From a virus, in the IMG/VR virus record IMGVR_UViG_3300033550_000002, positions 15,685 to 79,684 of that record: a stretch of 64,000 nt of DNA. One strand, written 5' to 3'. Positions 14,492 to 44,286 of this stretch are shown here, piece after piece. The notes under the pieces are model-generated. The model had not been told where the DNA came from and made no database searches. It was given only the letters and a program-made list of their open reading frames with translations. How positions within the stretch are numbered: position 1 is the stretch's first letter; the number at the start of each line of letters is the position of its first letter. The translations under genes were made by a program, and so were the position numbers.

Positions 14492-15983
14492 GGAACTCGG
14501 GCTCCTGGACCGGCGCGGGGTAGCGGTCGATCCAGGCGAGTCCGGAGCGGTCGAGGTGACGCTTGGCGCGGGTGACGGCCACGTAGTGGATCATCGCCTC
14601 GTGCCGGTCGATGGTGCCGGGCTCCAGCTCCATCGTCAGGGGGTTCTCGAACGGGCGGGGCTCGAAGAAGTCGTCGCCGAGCTGGACCCGGTCCCACTCC
14701 AGACCCTTGATCGAGTGGCAGGTGGTGACCGCGACGTCGTGCTTCGGGTACCGGTCGCTGTACTCGACCATCTGCTTGCACGCGTCGATCAGGGGGCTGA
14801 TCTTGTACGCCTGGATGAGCTTCACGATCGACTTGAGGTGGCCGCCGCCCGGCTCCTCCGTGTAGTCGACCAGCTCCTGCCAGTTACTGAAGGCGCTCAG
14901 CTCCAGGCTGCGCGGCTTCTCGCCCTTCATGAGGCTGGACGCCGCGTAGGCGATGTCCAGGATCTGCTTGGTGCCCTTCACCATCGCGACCCGCTTGCCC
15001 GCCATCAGGTAGCTGATGGCGTACTCCATCGCTCCGGCGTTGGTCCGGGTCAGAACCACGTCGGGGTCGGGCATCTCGCCCTCGGTGACCCGGTCGTTGA
15101 TCGAGTCGAGACCCTTGATCGTCACGCCGGTCAGCGTGTGCGGCAGGTGCTTCATGGCCTCCTCGGCCACCGCGTTGCCGAAGCGGAAGGACTGCGTCAG
15201 GTACAGGCGCTCGCCCTCGAACTTCAGGATCTGGTCGGAGGCACCGCGCCAGGCGTACAGGGCCTGGCTCGGGTCGCCGATCAGGACGCCCTGCGCGCCC
15301 TTCTGGTTGGACAGGAACTTCATCGTGCAGTCGTTACTGTCCTGCGCCTCGTCGATCAGGACGGCCTCGTAGCCGAAGTTCCGGCCGCCCTCGGCGACCA
15401 GCTTGAAGGCGTGGGTCATCGTGAAGGGGAGCCACGAGCCCGGCTGGATCGCCTCCAGCCAGATCCGCCAGGCGAGCTTCGCGATGTGGATGCGGGACGC
15501 CTCCATGCTCGTCTGCTCGACACCGGCCACCGCGAAGTACACGTCCTTCTCGGTGATCTTCTTGTGGTCGGAGTTGCAGAACCGGTTGATCGCCTCGGCG
15601 GCCAGGCGGGCCTGCGTGAACCCGTCGAGCATCAGCCCGCTGCCGAAGTCGACCGGCTTGATGCCGAGGCGCTTGGCGATGGCCGAGGCGGGCACGTGCG
15701 GCGCGTCGATCCTCATGCGGTCCGCGTGCGTGTCGGCGTACGAGCGCCAGGCCATCTGGCTGGTGGTGCGCACGTCCACCCAGGGCATGTCCTTGAACTT
15801 GCGCTCCGCCTCCTTGCGGGCGGCGGTGTTGTAGACCAGGTAGAGCGTCTTCTTGCCGCGCATCTGGTGTGCCATGCCGACGGCGGTGGCGCTCTTGCCG
15901 GAACCGGCGGGCGCGATCAGGGAGAACGACACCCCCTTGGCGGCCAGGTCGATCGCGGCCTGCTGCTCCTCCGTGAACTTCAC
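14481..15983 (-). CDS. UvrD/Rep-like SF1 helicase
   Basis: APAGSGKS, IDEAQD, IGDPSQALYAWRGA, LTQSFRF, HSIKGLEW, YVAVTRA. Confidence 0.92.
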   Translation of the reverse strand: MKFTEEQQAAIDLAAKGVSFSLIAPAGSGKSATAVGMAHQMRGKKTLYLVYNTAARKEAERKFKDMPWVDVRTTSQMAWRSYADTHADRMRIDAPHVPASAIAKRLGIKPVDFGSGLMLDGFTQARLAAEAINRFCNSDHKKITEKDVYFAVAGVEQTSMEASRIHIAKLAWRIWLEAIQPGSWLPFTMTHAFKLVAEGGRNFGYEAVLIDEAQDSNDCTMKFLSNQKGAQGVLIGDPSQALYAWRGASDQILKFEGERLYLTQSFRFGNAVAEEAMKHLPHTLTGVTIKGLDSINDRVTEGEMPDPDVVLTRTNAGAMEYAISYLMAGKRVAMVKGTKQILDIAYAASSLMKGEKPRSLELSAFSNWQELVDYTEEPGGGHLKSIVKLIQAYKISPLIDACKQMVEYSDRYPKHDVAVTTCHSIKGLEWDRVQLGDDFFEPRPFENPLTMELEPGTIDRHEAMIHYVAVTRAKRHLDRSGLAWIDRYPAPVQEPEFRVA

Positions 15984-38824: not shown

Positions 38825-40399
38825 TCAGGTGAGCCACGGCCACTTCTCGTCGTACCCGGCCTCCAGCGCGAGCACCTGGGCGAAGACCTGGTCGGTCAGT
38901 CCGCCGAACTCGTACCAGCCCTTCAGGCGGGTGTCGATCACGGTCGAGGCGTACCCGACCGGACTGACGCCGTAGAGCTTCACGCCGTCCGGCACCGGCA
39001 GGCTCCCGACGCGGCACTGCATGTCCGAGATCACGAACACGCGGTCGTGGCCGTCGAGACGGTTGCGGATCGCGCCCGAGATGTTCGTGCCGTGGCCGAC
39101 CTCACCGGTCCGCTGGACGAAGTCGCGGGCCGCCGACAGGACGCCCTGGCCCGGCTTCACGTTGTGCCGGAACTCGCTGTCCGCGAAGCCGAACAGGTCC
39201 ACCCGGCCCTGGTTGCGCTGGGCCAGCGTGACGCCGAAGATCGAGGCGACCTCCGACATCATGACCGTCGACTTCTGCGACATCTTCGTGTAGGTCATCG
39301 ACGCCGAGGTGTCGATGAGCACGAGCGTGCGGCCCGGCAGCTCCGGGACGGACTTCAGCGAGCTGTTGATCGCGTCGTCCAGGGCCTGCTTCCAGCGGTC
39401 GCTCGGGGCCTCGCGGTACGCCGTGTAGAACCGGAACGGGAACTGACGGCTCTTCGCCACCTCGGCCGGGTCGGCCAGCCGGTCGGCCAGCGCGCGCGCC
39501 CGCTTCGGGTCGATACCTGCCTCGTCCATGTTCCGCAGGTTCCGCAGCGCGGCCATGTACGGCAGGTGCGGGGCCATGGCGTCCCAGACCTTCTTCGCGC
39601 CGACGCGCGCCTTCAGGTCCGAGACCGCGTTCTCCCACGTGATGCCCGCATCCGTGAAGGCGGAGCCGTCGGCGAGGGACGCGAGCTTGCGCTGGTCGTC
39701 CAGGCCGTACCAGCGCTTGCGGGCCGCGATCATCGGGACCGTCGAGATGTCGCCGTCGCCGTGGTGCCGCTCGTCGAGCAGGTACTTGAACAGGGCACCC
39801 TGCCAGTCGCCTTCACCGCGCTCGGTGCGCGGCTTCGGGTGGACCAGCTCCAGCACGTCCGCGAAGCGCAGGCCGCGCGCGTCGGAGTCCCACTTCAGCA
39901 CGTTCCGCTCGGTGAAGAGGCGGCGGATCGCCATCCCCAGACCGGCGCGGACCGCGTTCGGGAGCGCCCGGCCGAAGGTGAGCTGCCAGTACGCCAGGAA
40001 CTCGGTGATCTCCTCACCCCGCTGGATCACGGAGTCGATCAGCTCGGCGTTGCCGTCGTGCTGGCCCGCCTTGAGCCGGGCGCTGACCGCGTGCGCCGCC
40101 CCGGTCAGGGAAGCGGTGCGGATGTTCGCGTCCGAGCGCAGCCAGCGCAGCAGGCCGCGCAGCCACTCCCAGTCGCCGACCGCGTGCAGCTCCACGAGGT
40201 TGTTGTAGCGGGCGTCGCGGCTGGTGCCCTTCTCATGGAAGGTGTCCTGGCCGACGAGGTTCACGGCCGCGAGGCTGTACAGCTCGCCGCGCAGGCCGTG
40301 CCCGAAGGCCGGGGCTCCCTGGTGGTTCACCGTCGCGCCCTTGACGACGTCCTTCGGGCGTCCGGTCGCCCGGACACCTGCGTTGTTGAAGCGTGCCAT
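38825..40399 (-). CDS. Ro60/TROVE domain RNA-binding protein (Rsr-like)
   Basis: MARFN, R.DANIRT, LVHPKP, TWE, LPYMAALRNLRNM, SRQFPFRFYTAY, vWA LIDTSASM...ISDMQ. Confidence 0.95.
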   Translation of the reverse strand: MARFNNAGVRATGRPKDVVKGATVNHQGAPAFGHGLRGELYSLAAVNLVGQDTFHEKGTSRDARYNNLVELHAVGDWEWLRGLLRWLRSDANIRTASLTGAAHAVSARLKAGQHDGNAELIDSVIQRGEEITEFLAYWQLTFGRALPNAVRAGLGMAIRRLFTERNVLKWDSDARGLRFADVLELVHPKPRTERGEGDWQGALFKYLLDERHHGDGDISTVPMIAARKRWYGLDDQRKLASLADGSAFTDAGITWENAVSDLKARVGAKKVWDAMAPHLPYMAALRNLRNMDEAGIDPKRARALADRLADPAEVAKSRQFPFRFYTAYREAPSDRWKQALDDAINSSLKSVPELPGRTLVLIDTSASMTYTKMSQKSTVMMSEVASIFGVTLAQRNQGRVDLFGFADSEFRHNVKPGQGVLSAARDFVQRTGEVGHGTNISGAIRNRLDGHDRVFVISDMQCRVGSLPVPDGVKLYGVSPVGYASTVIDTRLKGWYEFGGLTDQVFAQVLALEAGYDEKWPWLT

Positions 40400-40414: not shown

Positions 40415-41176
40415 TCAGCCGATGTTCATGGTTCGCCGGTAGTCGGCGAAGCGGGCCTTGCGGATGACCGATCGGTCGGCGCTCCGGAAGACGATGCCTT
40501 CCGGCGAGCCGTGCCCCTTCTCGTCGAGTGCGACGCGGGTCTGGGGCAGGGTGTTGCTCAGGAACCGGTGGGTCCCGAAGTGGGTCTCGGGCATCTCGTA
40601 GCCCATCACGGTGCACAGGTGCGGCACGCGCGGGATGCCGGTCAGGCGGCTGACGTCGTCGAGCTGTTCGACCGACAGGAAGGTCTGGCCGCCGTTCTCA
40701 CGCCACCGGGAGATCGTTTCCCGGTCCCACTCGAAGGGCTGGGTGCCCTCCGTCAGGACGTCGAACATGCGGTGGCCGCGCGATCCGCTGCCCGTGTACT
40801 GCTTCGCCTGGCCGCCGATCTTCGAGCCGTAGACCTCCAGGTACACCGCGACCACGCCGAGTTCCGGGGACAGCTCCGAGATCTGGCACAGGCTCTCCGC
40901 GACGGGGCGCAGCTCGGTGACGATGTCGTGGCTGACGCCGGTCGACGGGACCACCCGGTCACCCTTCGCGTGCAGCAGCTCCTCGCGGGAGCCGATGAAG
41001 TAGTCACCGCCGGGGAGCAGGACGATGCGGCCGTTCGTGCCGTCGACCTTCTCGTAGCCGAACACCTCTCCGGTGAACGGTGTCACCTTGTCGGTGAGCC
41101 GACCCTTCTCGCCGAGGACGTGGTAGGTCTCGATCGATGGGTACTTCGTGACGGAGTTCAGGATTTCCAGGTTCAC
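40415..41176 (-). CDS. ATP-dependent RNA ligase (Rnl2-like nucleotidyltransferase)
   Basis: KYPSI, motif I EKVDGTN, III EVYG, IIIa FDV, IV EGIVFR, V RKAR..DY. Confidence 0.8.
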   Translation of the reverse strand: MNLEILNSVTKYPSIETYHVLGEKGRLTDKVTPFTGEVFGYEKVDGTNGRIVLLPGGDYFIGSREELLHAKGDRVVPSTGVSHDIVTELRPVAESLCQISELSPELGVVAVYLEVYGSKIGGQAKQYTGSGSRGHRMFDVLTEGTQPFEWDRETISRWRENGGQTFLSVEQLDDVSRLTGIPRVPHLCTVMGYEMPETHFGTHRFLSNTLPQTRVALDEKGHGSPEGIVFRSADRSVIRKARFADYRRTMNIG

Positions 41177-41195
41177 GGTTCTCTCCTTTTCCGGG

Positions 41196-41225
41196 AAAAC
41201 AAAAACCCCCTCCGACTGGAGGGGG
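41196..41225 (-). terminator. intrinsic terminator after Y RNA cluster
   Basis: - strand CCCCCTCC-AGTC-GGAGGGGG-TTTTTGTTTT. Confidence 0.8.
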
Positions 41226-41232
41226 CGCGATA

Positions 41233-41394
41233 TGCACAGACGTACCGGCCGGTTCACCAGAGCAACTGCGGTTTTTGGAGACCATTGCTCTACCAATTGA
41301 GCTACCCAGCTTTTCAAGGCCGGGACTGGAATTGAACCAGCAACCCACGGTTTGAAGTAACCGCCGTCTTCGCACCGGCCGGTGCGTCCGTGCA
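41233..41394 (-). ncRNA. Y RNA (YrlA-type) with permuted tRNA domain
   Basis: about 21-bp terminal stem with GGUGCGA/GGUGAACC Ro-site-like helix; T arm GCUGG-UUCAAUU-CCAGU precedes D arm GCUC-AAUUGGUA-GAGC. Confidence 0.85.
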
Positions 41395-41397
41395 CAT

Positions 41398-41567
41398 CAC
41401 AGGAATCCTGGAGCCGCCTGGTTCACCGAGATCGCGACGGGGAACGTTGCGCGTGCTGCCAATTACACTACCGGGCTTTCGCCTTCGCCTGGACTTGAAC
41501 CGGACTACGCCCTCCTGAAGGGGAAGTATCCGTCACTGTCGCACCAGACGACACCAGGATTCCTGTG
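41398..41567 (-). ncRNA. Y RNA (YrlA-type) with permuted tRNA domain
   Basis: CACAGGAAUCCUGG/CCAGGAUUCCUGUG stem, GGUGCGA/GGUGAACC, T loop GGUUCAAGUCC before D arm GUGUAAUUGGCAGCAC. Confidence 0.8.
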
Positions 41568-41570
41568 AAT

Positions 41571-41650
41571 TGCGCCCCCCGGTTCACCGGAACGACTGCG
41601 GAGAGTTTCATTACCAGTGAAGTATCCGCTGTCTTCGCACCGGGGGTGCA
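41571..41650 (-). ncRNA. minimal Y RNA lacking tRNA domain
   Basis: same GGUGCGAAGAC.GCGG.UACUUC and CCGCAGU.G.UC.GGUGAACC motifs, closed by a short loop. Confidence 0.75.
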
Positions 41651-41656
41651 GGAAAA

Positions 41657-41686
41657 ACATTACGGGATGCTGCGACGAGGTCGCAA
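41657..41686 (-). promoter_or_regulatory. sigma70/HrdB-type promoter for Y RNA cluster
   Basis: TTGCGA-18 nt-TAATGT, 6 nt before first Y RNA. Confidence 0.65.
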
Positions 41687-41691
41687 CTCCT

Positions 41692-42165
41692 TTACGCGTA
41701 GACCGCGCAGAGCAGCCAGGAGGCCGTCGTCTGCTGCGGGGTCATCTCCAGCCGCTCCAGCGCCCGGCTCAGCCTGCCCTCCGCGAGGAGGTACTGCGCC
41801 GGGGTGAACGTGAGCGGGTCGATGGCCTGGGGAACGGTGCCGGAAGCCTTGAAGGTCATGCCGGAGGCGACCAGGGAGATGTGCGTGTACTCCAGGTGCC
41901 CGGTCCAGCAGATGTCGATGCCGAGGTGCTTCGCCATGAGCGCGGACAGCGAGTACTCGGCGGAGTCGATCTCCTCCTGGCTCACGTTGCCCGCGCGCAG
42001 GAGCCGCCTGCGCATCTCGTTCTCGTAGTCCGACTCGATGTCGGCCATCCAGTGGCCGTCGAGAAGGCTGCCGTACTCGTCGACCTCGTCGACCTTCCAG
42101 GAGCCCTCGTCGGGACAGCCCAGGTAGAACCCGTACGCGAGGCGCGCACTCGACCCCATCGGCAT
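41692..42165 (-). CDS. hypothetical protein
   Basis: 157-aa ORF, GAGGGG RBS. Confidence 0.6.
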   Translation of the reverse strand: MPMGSSARLAYGFYLGCPDEGSWKVDEVDEYGSLLDGHWMADIESDYENEMRRRLLRAGNVSQEEIDSAEYSLSALMAKHLGIDICWTGHLEYTHISLVASGMTFKASGTVPQAIDPLTFTPAQYLLAEGRLSRALERLEMTPQQTTASWLLCAVYA

Positions 42166-42343
42166 ACCATTTCCCCTCTCCGGAACAAGACCGCGCGTCA
42201 GTACGCGCCGGACTCCTCGTACATCATCGTGATCTTCTGCTCCCGGTAGGCTTCCAGCTCCTCCGGGGACAGGAAGGTCATGCCGTCCTCGATCGCGATA
42301 AAATCGGCCGTGTCGGCCATCTTTTCTTCTCCCTTCCCTTGCG

Positions 42344-42461
42344 TGTACACGATGGGATTCGAACCCACGGACCGCACGGAATCACCAGTTCCGCCCGGTC
42401 GCCTGCCCCTGTCGCTGGGACGACTTCAGCAGGCACCCTTTGGCCACTCGGGCACGTGTAC
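42344..42461 (-). ncRNA. non-canonical tRNA-like RNA (expanded anticodon loop, very long variable arm)
   Basis: acceptor GUACACG/CGUGUAC, D arm CCCGAGUGGCCAAAGGG, anticodon stem GCCUG/CAGGC, T arm GUGGG-UUCGAAU-CCCAU. Confidence 0.7.
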
Positions 42462-42570
42462 TGCCGGACCTCGAACGGTTACCGGCCCAGATTCCGCCTA
42501 CGGGGGTCAATGTGGCCATACGGCTCATCTACGCGGAATCAAGGAGGCTCTTCTGCCACCCCCACCTCAG

Positions 42571-42641
42571 AACCTGTGACGGGATTTGAACCCGCGCCGC
42601 CGACACCCTCACGTCGGAGTGCTGCGCTACACCACACAGGC
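42571..42641 (-). ncRNA. tRNA-like RNA with 8-nt anticodon loop
   Basis: acceptor GCCUGUG/CACAGGU, CCGAC-GUGAGGGU-GUCGG, T arm GCGGG-UUCAAAU-CCCGU; D loop lacks GG. Confidence 0.65.
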
Positions 42642-42753
42642 CGGAATCCAGGAGCGGAAGCGTGGAGCCGCCGCTGTGCCTTCCTGGATTCCTTGTTGGT
42701 TCAAAAAGGACCGAGGGCTGTGCTGTGCCAACAGGGTGCAACCCCCGGTCCAG

Positions 42754-42827
42754 TCGACGGAGAAGGACTTGAACCTTCGACCTCTGGTTTATCAGACCAG
42801 TGCTCTACCGAACTGAGCTATCCGTCG
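42754..42827 (-). tRNA. tRNA-Ile(GAT)
   Basis: canonical cloverleaf CGACGGA/UCCGUCG, loop CU-GAU-AA, T loop UUCAAGU; no encoded CCA. Confidence 0.92.
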
Positions 42828-42938
42828 TTCCTCGCCAGGGGTGGTCGGATCACCCCCGGCGAAGGGTGCGCCGAGGAGGGCCAAATCAACCTCGGTGCGG
42901 GTGTTCTCAGGTGGTCGGACACCCTCGAACTAGTTATT

Positions 42939-42968
42939 ACGTTACCGGAGTTGAGGGCAGGGTGTCAA
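42939..42968 (-). promoter_or_regulatory. sigma70/HrdB-type promoter for tRNA/ncRNA cluster
   Basis: TTGACA-18 nt-TAACGT. Confidence 0.75.
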
Positions 42969-42978
42969 CTTCCTGCGA

Positions 42979-44286
42979 TCAGACCGCGAGGCGGAAGTAC
43001 TCCCCGTCCGGCTTCAGGATTCCGTCGCGGGTGAAGGACCGCAGGAATCCCGTCGCCTGCTGGGTCCCGCAGCCCGTCCAGGAAGCCAGGATCTCCGGCG
43101 TCCAGAAGCCGTCCGGCTGGCTCCTGAGCGCCCGCAGGGCGACGTCCCGGGGAAACTGCCCGACACCGTTCTTCGGGTACGCCAGGAGGCGCACCATGTC
43201 GTCGGTGACCGTCCAGGTGCGGATCAGGTTCCGGCCGTGCACGTTCAGGTACCCGTGCCCCCGGAAGCGCGTTCCGCGCGGGAGCGTGTGCGGCTCCACG
43301 CCGGAGCCGTCGCCGAGCACCGTCGTCGTGTTCTGCGAGGTGTTCACCCGCAGGCAGAAGGAGTAGTCGAAGTTCGAGCGGATGCCCGAGGTGATACCCC
43401 GGTCGTCTCCCGTGCGCAGCGGGTTCTGCGTCATCCACATCAGGATGACCTCGCGGGAACGCCCCTGGCTGGACAGCTCGGTGAGCTTCTGCATCACCGA
43501 CTTGTCCGGGCCCTCCTGGAAGGTGTACTCCTCACCGTCCTGGTTCTTCGGGGCCTTGCCGCGCCGCTTGTCCTCCTCGATCACCGCGCAGAGGACCGAG
43601 TACCCCTCGTCGATGACGATGAGCTTGCGGGGCCCGAGCTGGAAGTCCCACTTGCTCAGGCCCTTCTTGGCCATCAGGGCGGCCCGCTCTTCCATCTTGG
43701 CGTGGGCGGACTCGATGGCCTCGATGATCTCCTCGTGGGCGACCGCGCAGCGGCAGATGCCGCGCCAGACCGTGGCCTCCTCGCCCTTCCCGTCGATGAA
43801 CCAGTCCAGCTCCTCGTCGGGGTGCACGACGGCGCGGGCCATCAGGGACCGCGTGGACCAGCTCTTGCCGGAGCCCGAGGCCCCGCCGACCAGGATGCGC
43901 TCGTTGCGCGGTACGTCGACCTCCTCGCCCGTGACGGTGTCGCGCCCCAGGGTCGTGATGCCGGGGTGCCAGAACATGTCCAGCTCGTCGGTCACGTACC
44001 GGGTCCGGATCGCGTAGAGCACTCGCGAGGACCGGCCGGAGGGCGACAGGTCGCTCAGGTCGGCGTCGAGGACGTCGAGCATGACGCGCAGCTTCTGGTG
44101 CCCGCGCTCCAGCTCGGTCAGGGTGTCGCGGTCGTTGAGTCCGAGGGTCGCCACGACCCCGGACTCGGTCAGGGCGGCGTTGACCAGGCTCACGCCACGG
44201 AAGCCGCGCTTGCGGGACTCGACTTCCCACCAGGCGGGCTGGAGGAGGTCGAGGAGGCGCAGTTCCTCATCCGTCGGCTTCAGCAC
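42979..44286 (-). CDS. TraB-like FtsK/SpoIIIE DNA translocase
   Basis: ILVGGASGSGKS, IDGKG, IVIDE, QGRS, TQNP, IRSNF; short C-terminal wHTH. Confidence 0.85.
   Translation of the reverse strand: MLKPTDEELRLLDLLQPAWWEVESRKRGFRGVSLVNAALTESGVVATLGLNDRDTLTELERGHQKLRVMLDVLDADLSDLSPSGRSSRVLYAIRTRYVTDELDMFWHPGITTLGRDTVTGEEVDVPRNERILVGGASGSGKSWSTRSLMARAVVHPDEELDWFIDGKGEEATVWRGICRCAVAHEEIIEAIESAHAKMEERAALMAKKGLSKWDFQLGPRKLIVIDEGYSVLCAVIEEDKRRGKAPKNQDGEEYTFQEGPDKSVMQKLTELSSQGRSREVILMWMTQNPLRTGDDRGITSGIRSNFDYSFCLRVNTSQNTTTVLGDGSGVEPHTLPRGTRFRGHGYLNVHGRNLIRTWTVTDDMVRLLAYPKNGVGQFPRDVALRALRSQPDGFWTPEILASWTGCGTQQATGFLRSFTRDGILKPDGEYFRLAV

Follow-up and report, generated by a model that had tools for sequence, protein, structure and literature searches.

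Is an RNA that keeps the body of a tRNA, and carries a closed hairpin where the anticodon loop belongs, a tRNA waiting to be spliced, a decaying gene, or a mimic that never decodes? The question is raised by a 118-nt element at positions 42344 to 42461 (minus strand) of the window, the whole 64,000-nt stretch of IMG/VR virus record IMGVR_UViG_3300033550_000002 analyzed here (record positions 15,685 to 79,684). The source contig is a 79.7-kb virus fragment, approximately 42% complete, of the Streptomyces jumbo-phage type, and the window shares approximately 73% nucleotide identity with the 184- to 200-kb Streptomyces phages Satis, Kradal, Quantum, EhyElimayoE, JustBecause, Kela and Frankenweenie. 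A sequence-only reading of the window had described a tRNA-like RNA with an intron-like insertion in its anticodon loop and had offered three interpretations: a substrate of a nearby RNA ligase, a nuclease-activated tRNA, or a structural mimic. Every structural element that it listed is present, read from 42461 to 42344 on the minus strand; of its interpretations, the structural mimic fits the evidence, and the ligase substrate and the nuclease-activated or spliced tRNA are unsupported. We propose that the RNA is probably a non-decoding tRNA mimic that arose from a host-type tRNA-Tyr and engages tRNA-binding proteins, either as a nuclease decoy or as a partner of the neighboring Ro60 module. 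It belongs to a kind already known, the tRNA-mimic non-coding RNAs linked to Ro60; this form of it is new, and the literature searched held no description of it.

The RNA and its arms are laid out as follows, where RNA position p corresponds to window coordinate 42462-p and R1 is the covariance model built in this analysis from the 118-nt RNA family.

42344 to 42461, minus strand: tRNA-like RNA of 118 nt, derived from tRNA-Tyr; supported by its fold, the Rfam tRNA model (35.3 bits), covariation and R1 (134 bits)
42455 to 42461, minus strand: 5' strand of the acceptor stem (RNA positions 1-7), paired with 42345-42351; discriminator A73 at 42344
42436 to 42452, minus strand: D arm, a 3-bp stem CCC/GGG with an 11-nt loop holding A14, G15, GG and A21; matches the host tRNA-Tyr
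42401 to 42434, minus strand: X arm, 34 nt in the anticodon-arm position; supported by fold, alignment and covariation
42370 to 42400, minus strand: Y arm, 31 nt in the variable-arm position; 7 of 11 pairs compensatory, CUGG invariant
42352 to 42368, minus strand: T arm, a 5-bp stem with the canonical T-loop UUCGAAU; 100% paired, 3 of 5 pairs compensatory

The minimum-free-energy (MFE) fold reproduces the five-arm cloverleaf exactly (-60.4 kcal/mol, z = -3.7, equaled by 0 of 200 shuffles). Acceptor strands GUACACG and CGUGUAC form 7 bp ahead of a discriminator A, two nucleotides (UG) lead from the 5' strand into the class II D arm (CCC / GAGUGGCCAAA / GGG), and one more precedes the X arm. The Y arm stands directly 3' of the X arm, and a single C separates it from the T arm (GUGGG / UUCGAAU / CCCAU); the acceptor and T arms are as well formed as had been claimed. 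With its 7-bp acceptor stem, D arm, T arm and tertiary nucleotides (U8, A14, G15, a single C at 48, the D-loop GG, a canonical T loop, G1-C72 and A73), the 118-nt RNA has the body of a canonical tRNA, and the core nucleotides U8, A14 and G18G19 and the T-loop are invariant in 13 of 13 homologues.

The anticodon arm is another matter. There is no 5-bp stem with a 7-nt loop carrying U33 and an anticodon that orthologues share; the 24-nt "loop" folds into a rod made up of a 7-bp outer stem, a 3x3 purine internal loop, a 5-bp inner helix (42411-42424) and an apical loop. In the window GCCUGCU pairs with GGCAGGC, GAA lies opposite AGG, and GUCGU pairs with GCGAC around the loop CCCA, which bears out the earlier description of a GCCUG/CAGGC stem enclosing 24 nt with the hairpin GUCGU-CCCA-GCGAC. 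The family consensus reads GCYUGCU/GGCAGGC for the outer stem, GAA / RGR for the internal loop and N-CCA, closed by U.G, for the apical loop. K-turn, loop E/sarcin-ricin and bulge-helix-bulge motifs were checked by hand against the alignment as models for the rod, and none fits. A group I intron was likewise rejected, since its catalytic core takes about 200 nt or more and the insert has 17-24 nt, with no Rfam intron match. The Y arm, a 31-nt hairpin in the variable-arm position according to both the sequence and the MFE fold, is an 11-bp helix with one bulge per strand and the 7-nt loop CUGGUGA. This anticodon-like loop (CUGG-NNN in the family) is extended to 8 nt in 4 of the 13 homologues (Frankenweenie and loci L008, L015 and L017). 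It is the sole 7-nt loop of anticodon type in the molecule, with GGU, GGA or GGG as its triplet in close relatives. Because the 7-nt anticodon loop is replaced by an invariant closed rod, the RNA as predicted cannot pair with codons. Nor is the RNA needed for decoding: a separate array of Satis supplies ten ordinary tRNAs, one of them a normal tRNA-Phe(GAA), and the Y-loop triplet varies among close relatives.

Neither default ARAGORN nor a whole-window Rfam scan reports the RNA. In a 4.5-kb search the Rfam tRNA model (RF00005) scores it at 35.3 bits against a gathering threshold of 29, through a misassignment in which the Y arm is taken as the anticodon arm and the X arm as a 47-nt insertion; at E values up to 10, the RNA matches nothing in Rfam but tRNA.

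Homologues occupy the equivalent place in seven of seven related Streptomyces phage records, at 73-79% identity, and scans of IMG/VR and metagenomes added nine further loci. A rod-motif scan of IMG/VR returned 2 loci, and a pattern consisting of the D arm plus CUGAA returned 4 viral and 6 metagenome loci, each of 118-119 nt with the insert. No insertion-free copy was found in the IMG/VR or metagenome scan, although the D-arm plus CUGAA pattern would match one. R1 scores the relatives at 126-143 bits. The alignment built from these sources (Streptomyces phages, IMG/VR and metagenomes) holds 13 full-length homologues, 10 of them distinct sequences; all are 118-119 nt long and all carry the insertion. 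Across the distinct sequences 98.4% of cells form standard pairs, and compensatory (both-side) changes affect 18 of 38 pairs, compared to 1-4 pairs in slid controls and a value that 0 of 500 shuffles reach; a six-sequence version of the covariation test was also run. All seven acceptor pairs are kept at 100%, three of them with compensatory changes, and compensatory changes also affect four of the five pairs in the inner helix of the inserted hairpin. Every helix covaries except the X outer stem, which never varies in sequence. CUGAA in the 5' strand of the X arm, the tip U-N-CCA-G, G53, GGCAGGCG and CUGG of the Y loop are likewise invariant. Among near-identical metagenome strains, three of four substitutions keep pairing (U2.G, G94-C, U.G56). 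Given 18 compensatory pairs of 38 against 1-4 in the controls, the comparative evidence indicates that the structure of the 118-nt RNA is under selection.

The body points to a particular ancestor. Of 14 genome loci with the D-arm pattern that were checked, 13 proved to be tRNA-Tyr(GUA), among them every one of the 10 in Streptomyces. From U8 through G25 the RNA shares all 19 nt with Streptomyces tRNA-Tyr(GUA), and G1-C72 and A73 match too. When R1 is searched against a Streptomyces genome, the best match is tRNA-Tyr (44 bits), ahead of Cys, Ser and Glu. The D arm, G1-C72, A73 and this best host match together indicate that the RNA is not Leu-type but derives from a class II tRNA-Tyr, with which it also shares the 7/5 acceptor/T geometry, a class II variable arm and C32-U33-G34, so that the body as a whole is that of a bacterial tRNA-Tyr (class II, Tyr-type D arm, G1-C72, A73). 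In contrast to Streptomyces tRNA-Tyr, it has neither GUA nor a 7-nt loop: C-U-G-A-A is followed by the hairpin, 24 nt form a rod instead, and the variable arm has grown to 31 nt compared to 13 nt in the host tRNA. U35 is a major determinant for tyrosyl-tRNA synthetase (TyrRS).

The genes that follow the RNA on the same strand are, in order, a run of small open reading frames (ORFs), three Y-RNA-like units, an RNA ligase and a Ro60-like protein.

42198 to 42320, minus strand: small ORF of 40 amino acids (aa) from an ATG at 42320, first of the small-ORF run
41233 to 41650, minus strand: three tandem Y-RNA-like units sharing 5' GGUGCGA...UACUUC and 3' GGUGAACC
40415 to 41200 (start approximate), minus strand: RNA ligase (PF09414, phrog_548)
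38825 to 40399, minus strand: Ro60-like protein with TROVE and vWA domains (PF05731, E = 5e-17)

The Ro60/TROVE gene and the three Y RNAs lie 0.7-2 kb from the 118-nt RNA (Ro60 itself at 1.9 kb), on the same strand and within 2 kb in every relative examined, and the protein shares 62% identity with its Quantum and Kradal counterpart, named "Ro-like RNA binding protein" there. Two of the Y units have permuted tRNA-like domains, and the third is short, with an anticodon-like loop, CUGGUAA, at its apex. The last unit matches the Rfam YrlA model (RF02553; 41259-41367) at 40.8 bits against a gathering threshold of 69 (E of about 1e-6). Satis, JustBecause and Frankenweenie each carry three equivalent units with differing apex loops (CUGCAAA, CUGGAAA), parts of which ARAGORN and annotators call as tRNA-Cys or tRNA-Pro. 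The array has its own promoter-like sequence, TTGCGA-17-TAATGT, and a strong terminator at 41226-41205; a sigma-70 consensus scan of 41100-43100 found no promoter. GGAAUCC/GGAUUCC motifs recur between the Y units. The longest ligase ORF (40415-41395, minus strand, 326 aa) overlaps the YrlA-like RNA, which is why the true start is probably near 41200 or further downstream; the Pfam match begins at residue 110 and the JustBecause homologue has 250 aa. Typing of the ligase gave no match in PDB or NCBIfam beyond PF09414 and phrog_548.

YrlA Y RNAs are established tRNA mimics encoded beside Ro60 in bacteria and phages (PMC4201824). Like them, the 118-nt RNA is a tRNA-like domain with authentic D and T arms near a Ro60/TROVE gene, in a phage, and has a long helix in place of the anticodon loop (RF02553; PMC4201824; bioRxiv 10.1101/312249). 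The two differ in topology. YrlA RNAs are circularly permuted, ending in the Ro-binding stem with the acceptor stem closed by a loop, whereas the 118-nt RNA has the normal topology and a free acceptor end, a closed rod, a very long variable arm, no Y scaffold and no match to the YrlA model. By its predicted structure it is not a Y RNA in the YrlA sense. Elsewhere in actinophages, Ro-like genes lie inside a tRNA array (Streptomyces phage GiJojo, L143) or after a lone "tRNA-Arg" (Gordonia phage VanLee, L144), which may be a misannotated YrlA-type RNA. A search for related loci with the Ro protein as query found nothing.

The 118-nt RNA is not the only altered tRNA-like gene at this locus. Upstream lie two further genes:

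42570 to 42641, minus strand: second aberrant tRNA-like RNA, with an 8-nt anticodon loop in the window
42753 to 42827, minus strand: canonical tRNA-Ile(GAU) (ARAGORN; Rfam 75.1 bits), followed by a strong hairpin and U tract

The second tRNA-like gene sits 108 nt upstream of the 118-nt RNA, and its acceptor, D and T arms are conserved and covary. In most relatives (JustBecause, Frankenweenie and the metagenome copies) its loop contains a 14-nt hairpin, CUGG-N6-CCAG, between CUA and CG, for a total of 85 nt, which is annotated as tRNA-OTHER and called Pyl or undetermined by ARAGORN. In the Satis group it keeps just a 3-nt loop, yet is annotated as tRNA-His. Homologues lie at L001:3330-3415, L002:3306-3391 and L003:3927-3996. 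Two adjacent genes that retain the tRNA body and replace the anticodon loop with a non-decoding structure look like design rather than accident, and the pattern, anything except a working anticodon loop, looks general. The tetramers CCAG and CUGG of the 118-nt RNA are the same as those forming the inserted helix of its neighbor.

What might a tRNA that cannot decode do for a phage? Structure, conservation, tRNA-Tyr ancestry, loss of the anticodon loop and genomic association are established; we infer expression, processing, binding partner and biological role from the sequence. Since the RNA keeps the features of an L-shaped tRNA substrate, host RNase P, 3'-end trimming and CCA addition would be expected to mature it like a tRNA, and proteins that read the tRNA elbow, the acceptor end or a long variable arm would recognize it. 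Streptomyces cuts tRNAs in the anticodon loop (PMC2241913), and antiphage tRNases hit the anticodon arm or tRNA-Tyr and are countered by phage tRNAs (PMC11555353, PMC10264068, PMC13056530). We favor a role as pseudo-substrate or sponge for a host enzyme that targets tRNAs, for instance an antiphage nuclease of the anticodon arm or a toxin acting on the acceptor end, since a mimic without a cleavable loop could serve as a pseudo-substrate. Like the phage tRNAs that counter such defenses, the 118-nt RNA is phage encoded, derived from a tRNA and altered in the anticodon region relative to the host tRNA, and tRNA-Tyr is a documented defense target (PMC10264068, PMC11555353). Those tRNAs work, however, and act through point changes or high expression, whereas the 118-nt RNA, being unable to decode, would be a decoy or inhibitor. 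Alternatively, the mimic could be an accessory RNA of the adjoining phage Ro60/Y-RNA module. The oversized variable arm displays a look-alike of an anticodon stem-loop (CU-GGN-..), and the invariant CCAG of the rod tip could pair with the invariant CUGG of the variable-arm loop, either as a loop-loop contact or as a shared protein site. Phage T4 offers a distant parallel in "species 1" and "species 2," small stable RNAs of its tRNA gene cluster with tRNA-like ends and unknown function. To our knowledge, these have no sequence or structural relation to the 118-nt RNA, nor are they linked to Ro60.

Several findings count against a non-decoding mimic. All seven nucleotides of the would-be loop (CUGAAGG) are invariant, which would also suit a spliced tRNA. 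The Ro-binding terminal stem of Y RNAs is absent and the YrlA model finds no match at E values up to 10, for which reasons a direct link to Ro60 is one of proximity. The complementary CCAG and CUGG are both invariant and thereby beyond the reach of the covariation test, and the chance of an accidental match between them was estimated at approximately 5%. The family is limited to one clade of large Streptomyces phages and is absent from the Ro-encoding phages GiJojo and VanLee, where an R1 search returned ordinary tRNAs only. Lastly, the sequencing runs that carry the locus hold it as DNA contigs only.

The most direct alternative is that the RNA is a true tRNA precursor, from which a nuclease of the host or the phage cuts 17 nt (RNA positions 38-54) and the PF09414 ligase or host RtcB rejoins the ends. 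As the sequence-only reading stated, removal of 17 nt leaves the loop CUGAAGG; splicing would yield a tRNA of class II whose anticodon is GAA. In its favor, the tRNA body is complete, all seven loop nucleotides (C33 U34 G35 A36 A37, G55 G56) are invariant, and an RNA ligase lies approximately 1.15 kb away in the phage of the window. Archaeal and eukaryal intron-containing pre-tRNAs similarly carry a short hairpin insertion 3' of an anticodon-like triplet, at 37/38, but are defined by a bulge-helix-bulge of two 3-nt bulges with 4 bp between them. No such motif exists at the exon-intron borders of the 118-nt RNA: in the sole register that yields two 3-nt bulges, the central helix is just 2 bp long, and this register clashes with the covarying pairs 38:51 and 39:50 of the inner hairpin. 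Nor is the junction consistent, as ARAGORN in intron mode, to which the earlier reading had looked for a decision, calls the same span in six homologues and switches among four isotypes, Arg(gcg), Phe(gaa), Ala(ggc) and Pro(ggg), and among four intron lengths, 25, 44, 24 and 34 nt. Among the phage genes of five genomes, one rated 100% complete, no tRNA-intron endonuclease (EndA; PF01974), RtcB (PF01139) or CCA-adding enzyme was found, with control genomes positive. The PF09414 ligase occurs in two of these five. By tblastn and profile search, it occurs only in JustBecause, Kela and the phage of the window; the RNA with its insertion is kept, without this ligase, in Satis and its kin, in Frankenweenie and in a complete IMG/VR relative, which argues against a ligase substrate. 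A Tyr-type body with a Phe anticodon would, moreover, misdecode or duplicate the phage tRNA-Phe(GAA), parts of the "intron" (U42, CCAG, G53) are as invariant as the loop, and the insert of the neighboring RNA leaves no 7-nt loop. Taken together, we regard a spliced tRNA as quite improbable. A related idea, that the 17-nt insert is a real short tRNA intron removed in the bacterial host without a bulge-helix-bulge, might depend on a structure-specific host nuclease that acts on the purine internal loop, with host RtcB or the phage ligase then joining the ends. The invariant would-be loop nucleotides, all seven of them, are what speaks for it. We think this very unlikely; if true, it would amount to a phage-made recoding tRNA, class II, with the anticodon GAA on a tyrosine-type body.

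Other explanations invoke position rather than decoding. The RNA could be a cis-acting processing or stability element without function in trans, at which RNase P and 3'-end processing recognize the tRNA shape and set the 5' end of the small-ORF mRNA some 10-25 nt before the start codon. The 40-aa ORF indeed starts 24 nt after the RNA, with a ribosome-binding site from approximately 10 nt after its 3' end; small coding sequences (CDSs) follow at 1-25 nt in all annotated relatives examined, and the RNA lies within a run of structured spacers. An ordinary tRNA or simple hairpin would suffice for this purpose, however, and the invariant rod, the loop motifs and an 11-bp covarying variable arm with an anticodon-like loop would go unexplained, which makes a purely cis-acting element unlikely in our view. 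We also see little likelihood that the RNA is an additional ligand or substrate mimic of the phage Ro60/Y-RNA particle, with the closed rod as a non-canonical Ro site or the 3' end threading the Ro ring like a misfolded RNA. In favor of such a ligand, all relatives combine the RNA with Ro60 and three Y RNAs, Ro genes of other actinophages lie in or beside tRNA genes, and the minimal Y RNA in the window has a CUGG-type anticodon-like loop; against it, the RNA bears no likeness to the Y scaffold (5' GGUGCGA..UACUUC, 3' GGUGAACC), ends at an acceptor stem rather than a Ro-binding stem and is missed by the YrlA model. Least credible of all is a decaying tRNA-Tyr pseudogene or a protein-coding region. 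tRNA finders fail on the RNA, and two GenBank records, Kela gene 140 (L004:621-866) and Quantum gene 139 (L005:611-856), draw an 81-aa CDS across it. JustBecause gene 141 (L001:3112-3183) is a 72-nt "tRNA-Ser(gga)" made from its 3' two-thirds, and nothing is annotated there in Satis, Kradal, EhyElimayoE and Frankenweenie. The CDS of Kela and Quantum was rejected, as the better start codon is an ATG downstream of the RNA, preceded by a ribosome-binding site; the tRNA-Ser of JustBecause was rejected too. Unstructured decay in homologues, which the sequence-only reading had named as one outcome that would overturn it, was not seen: 18 compensatory pairs and an invariant insertion in sequences only 73-79% identical are incompatible with neutral decay and indicate that the RNA is not a decaying pseudogene.

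If the non-decoding mimic is indeed a pseudo-substrate inhibitor of an antiphage tRNase, it would represent a new type of RNA-based antidefense. Phage tRNA genes are now regarded as weapons against host defenses that cut tRNAs, and Ro60-linked Y RNAs are the best-known bacterial tRNA mimics; here, 4 kb hold a Ro60 gene, three Y RNAs, two tRNA-shaped RNAs whose tRNA body is perfect and whose anticodon loop has been lost in structured, conserved ways, and a facultative RNA ligase. Grown on S. lividans or S. scabiei, the phages Satis, JustBecause and Kela provide a defined, culturable system for studying what phage tRNA mimics bind. The locus also flags RNAs that phage annotation overlooks or mislabels as CDS, tRNA-Ser, tRNA-His or tRNA-OTHER.

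Near-identical DNA (65-100% of sampled words; window 41150-42950) occurs in soil, groundwater, plant and invertebrate-gut metagenomes from approximately ten studies, suggesting by this occurrence that the phage lineage is widespread. The 24 runs with the locus are DNA metagenomes, or are labeled metatranscriptomic and probably DNA, and all hold it as contigs. Four runs mapped over the locus gave contiguous cover without joints, which is uninformative on RNA. Unrelated tRNA-like contigs, which match the tRNA domain of the Y RNA, account for a depth spike at 41272-41332. Among the small ORFs, one of 157 aa matched nothing in Pfam, PHROG or NCBIfam, and the 40-aa ORF nothing in PHROG.

The spacer that follows tRNA-Ile (42642-42752, minus strand) contains two strong hairpins (-56.6 kcal/mol, z = -5.5). 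The first, with UUUUU behind it, resembles a terminator, and the second has an 11-bp GGAAUCCAGGA/UCCUGGAUUCC stem immediately before the next tRNA-like gene. No class II tRNA (Leu, Ser, Tyr) is annotated in the main tRNA array of Satis. A weak R1 match within it (L010:4663-4780) was rejected for lack of a significant fold (z = -0.9). An unannotated 95-nt stretch after tRNA-Asn (L010:5449-5543; Satis 126448-126542) scores 30.9 bits with R1. Its features include a 7-bp acceptor stem and a T arm, but its fold is not significantly better than those of shuffles (z = -0.8).

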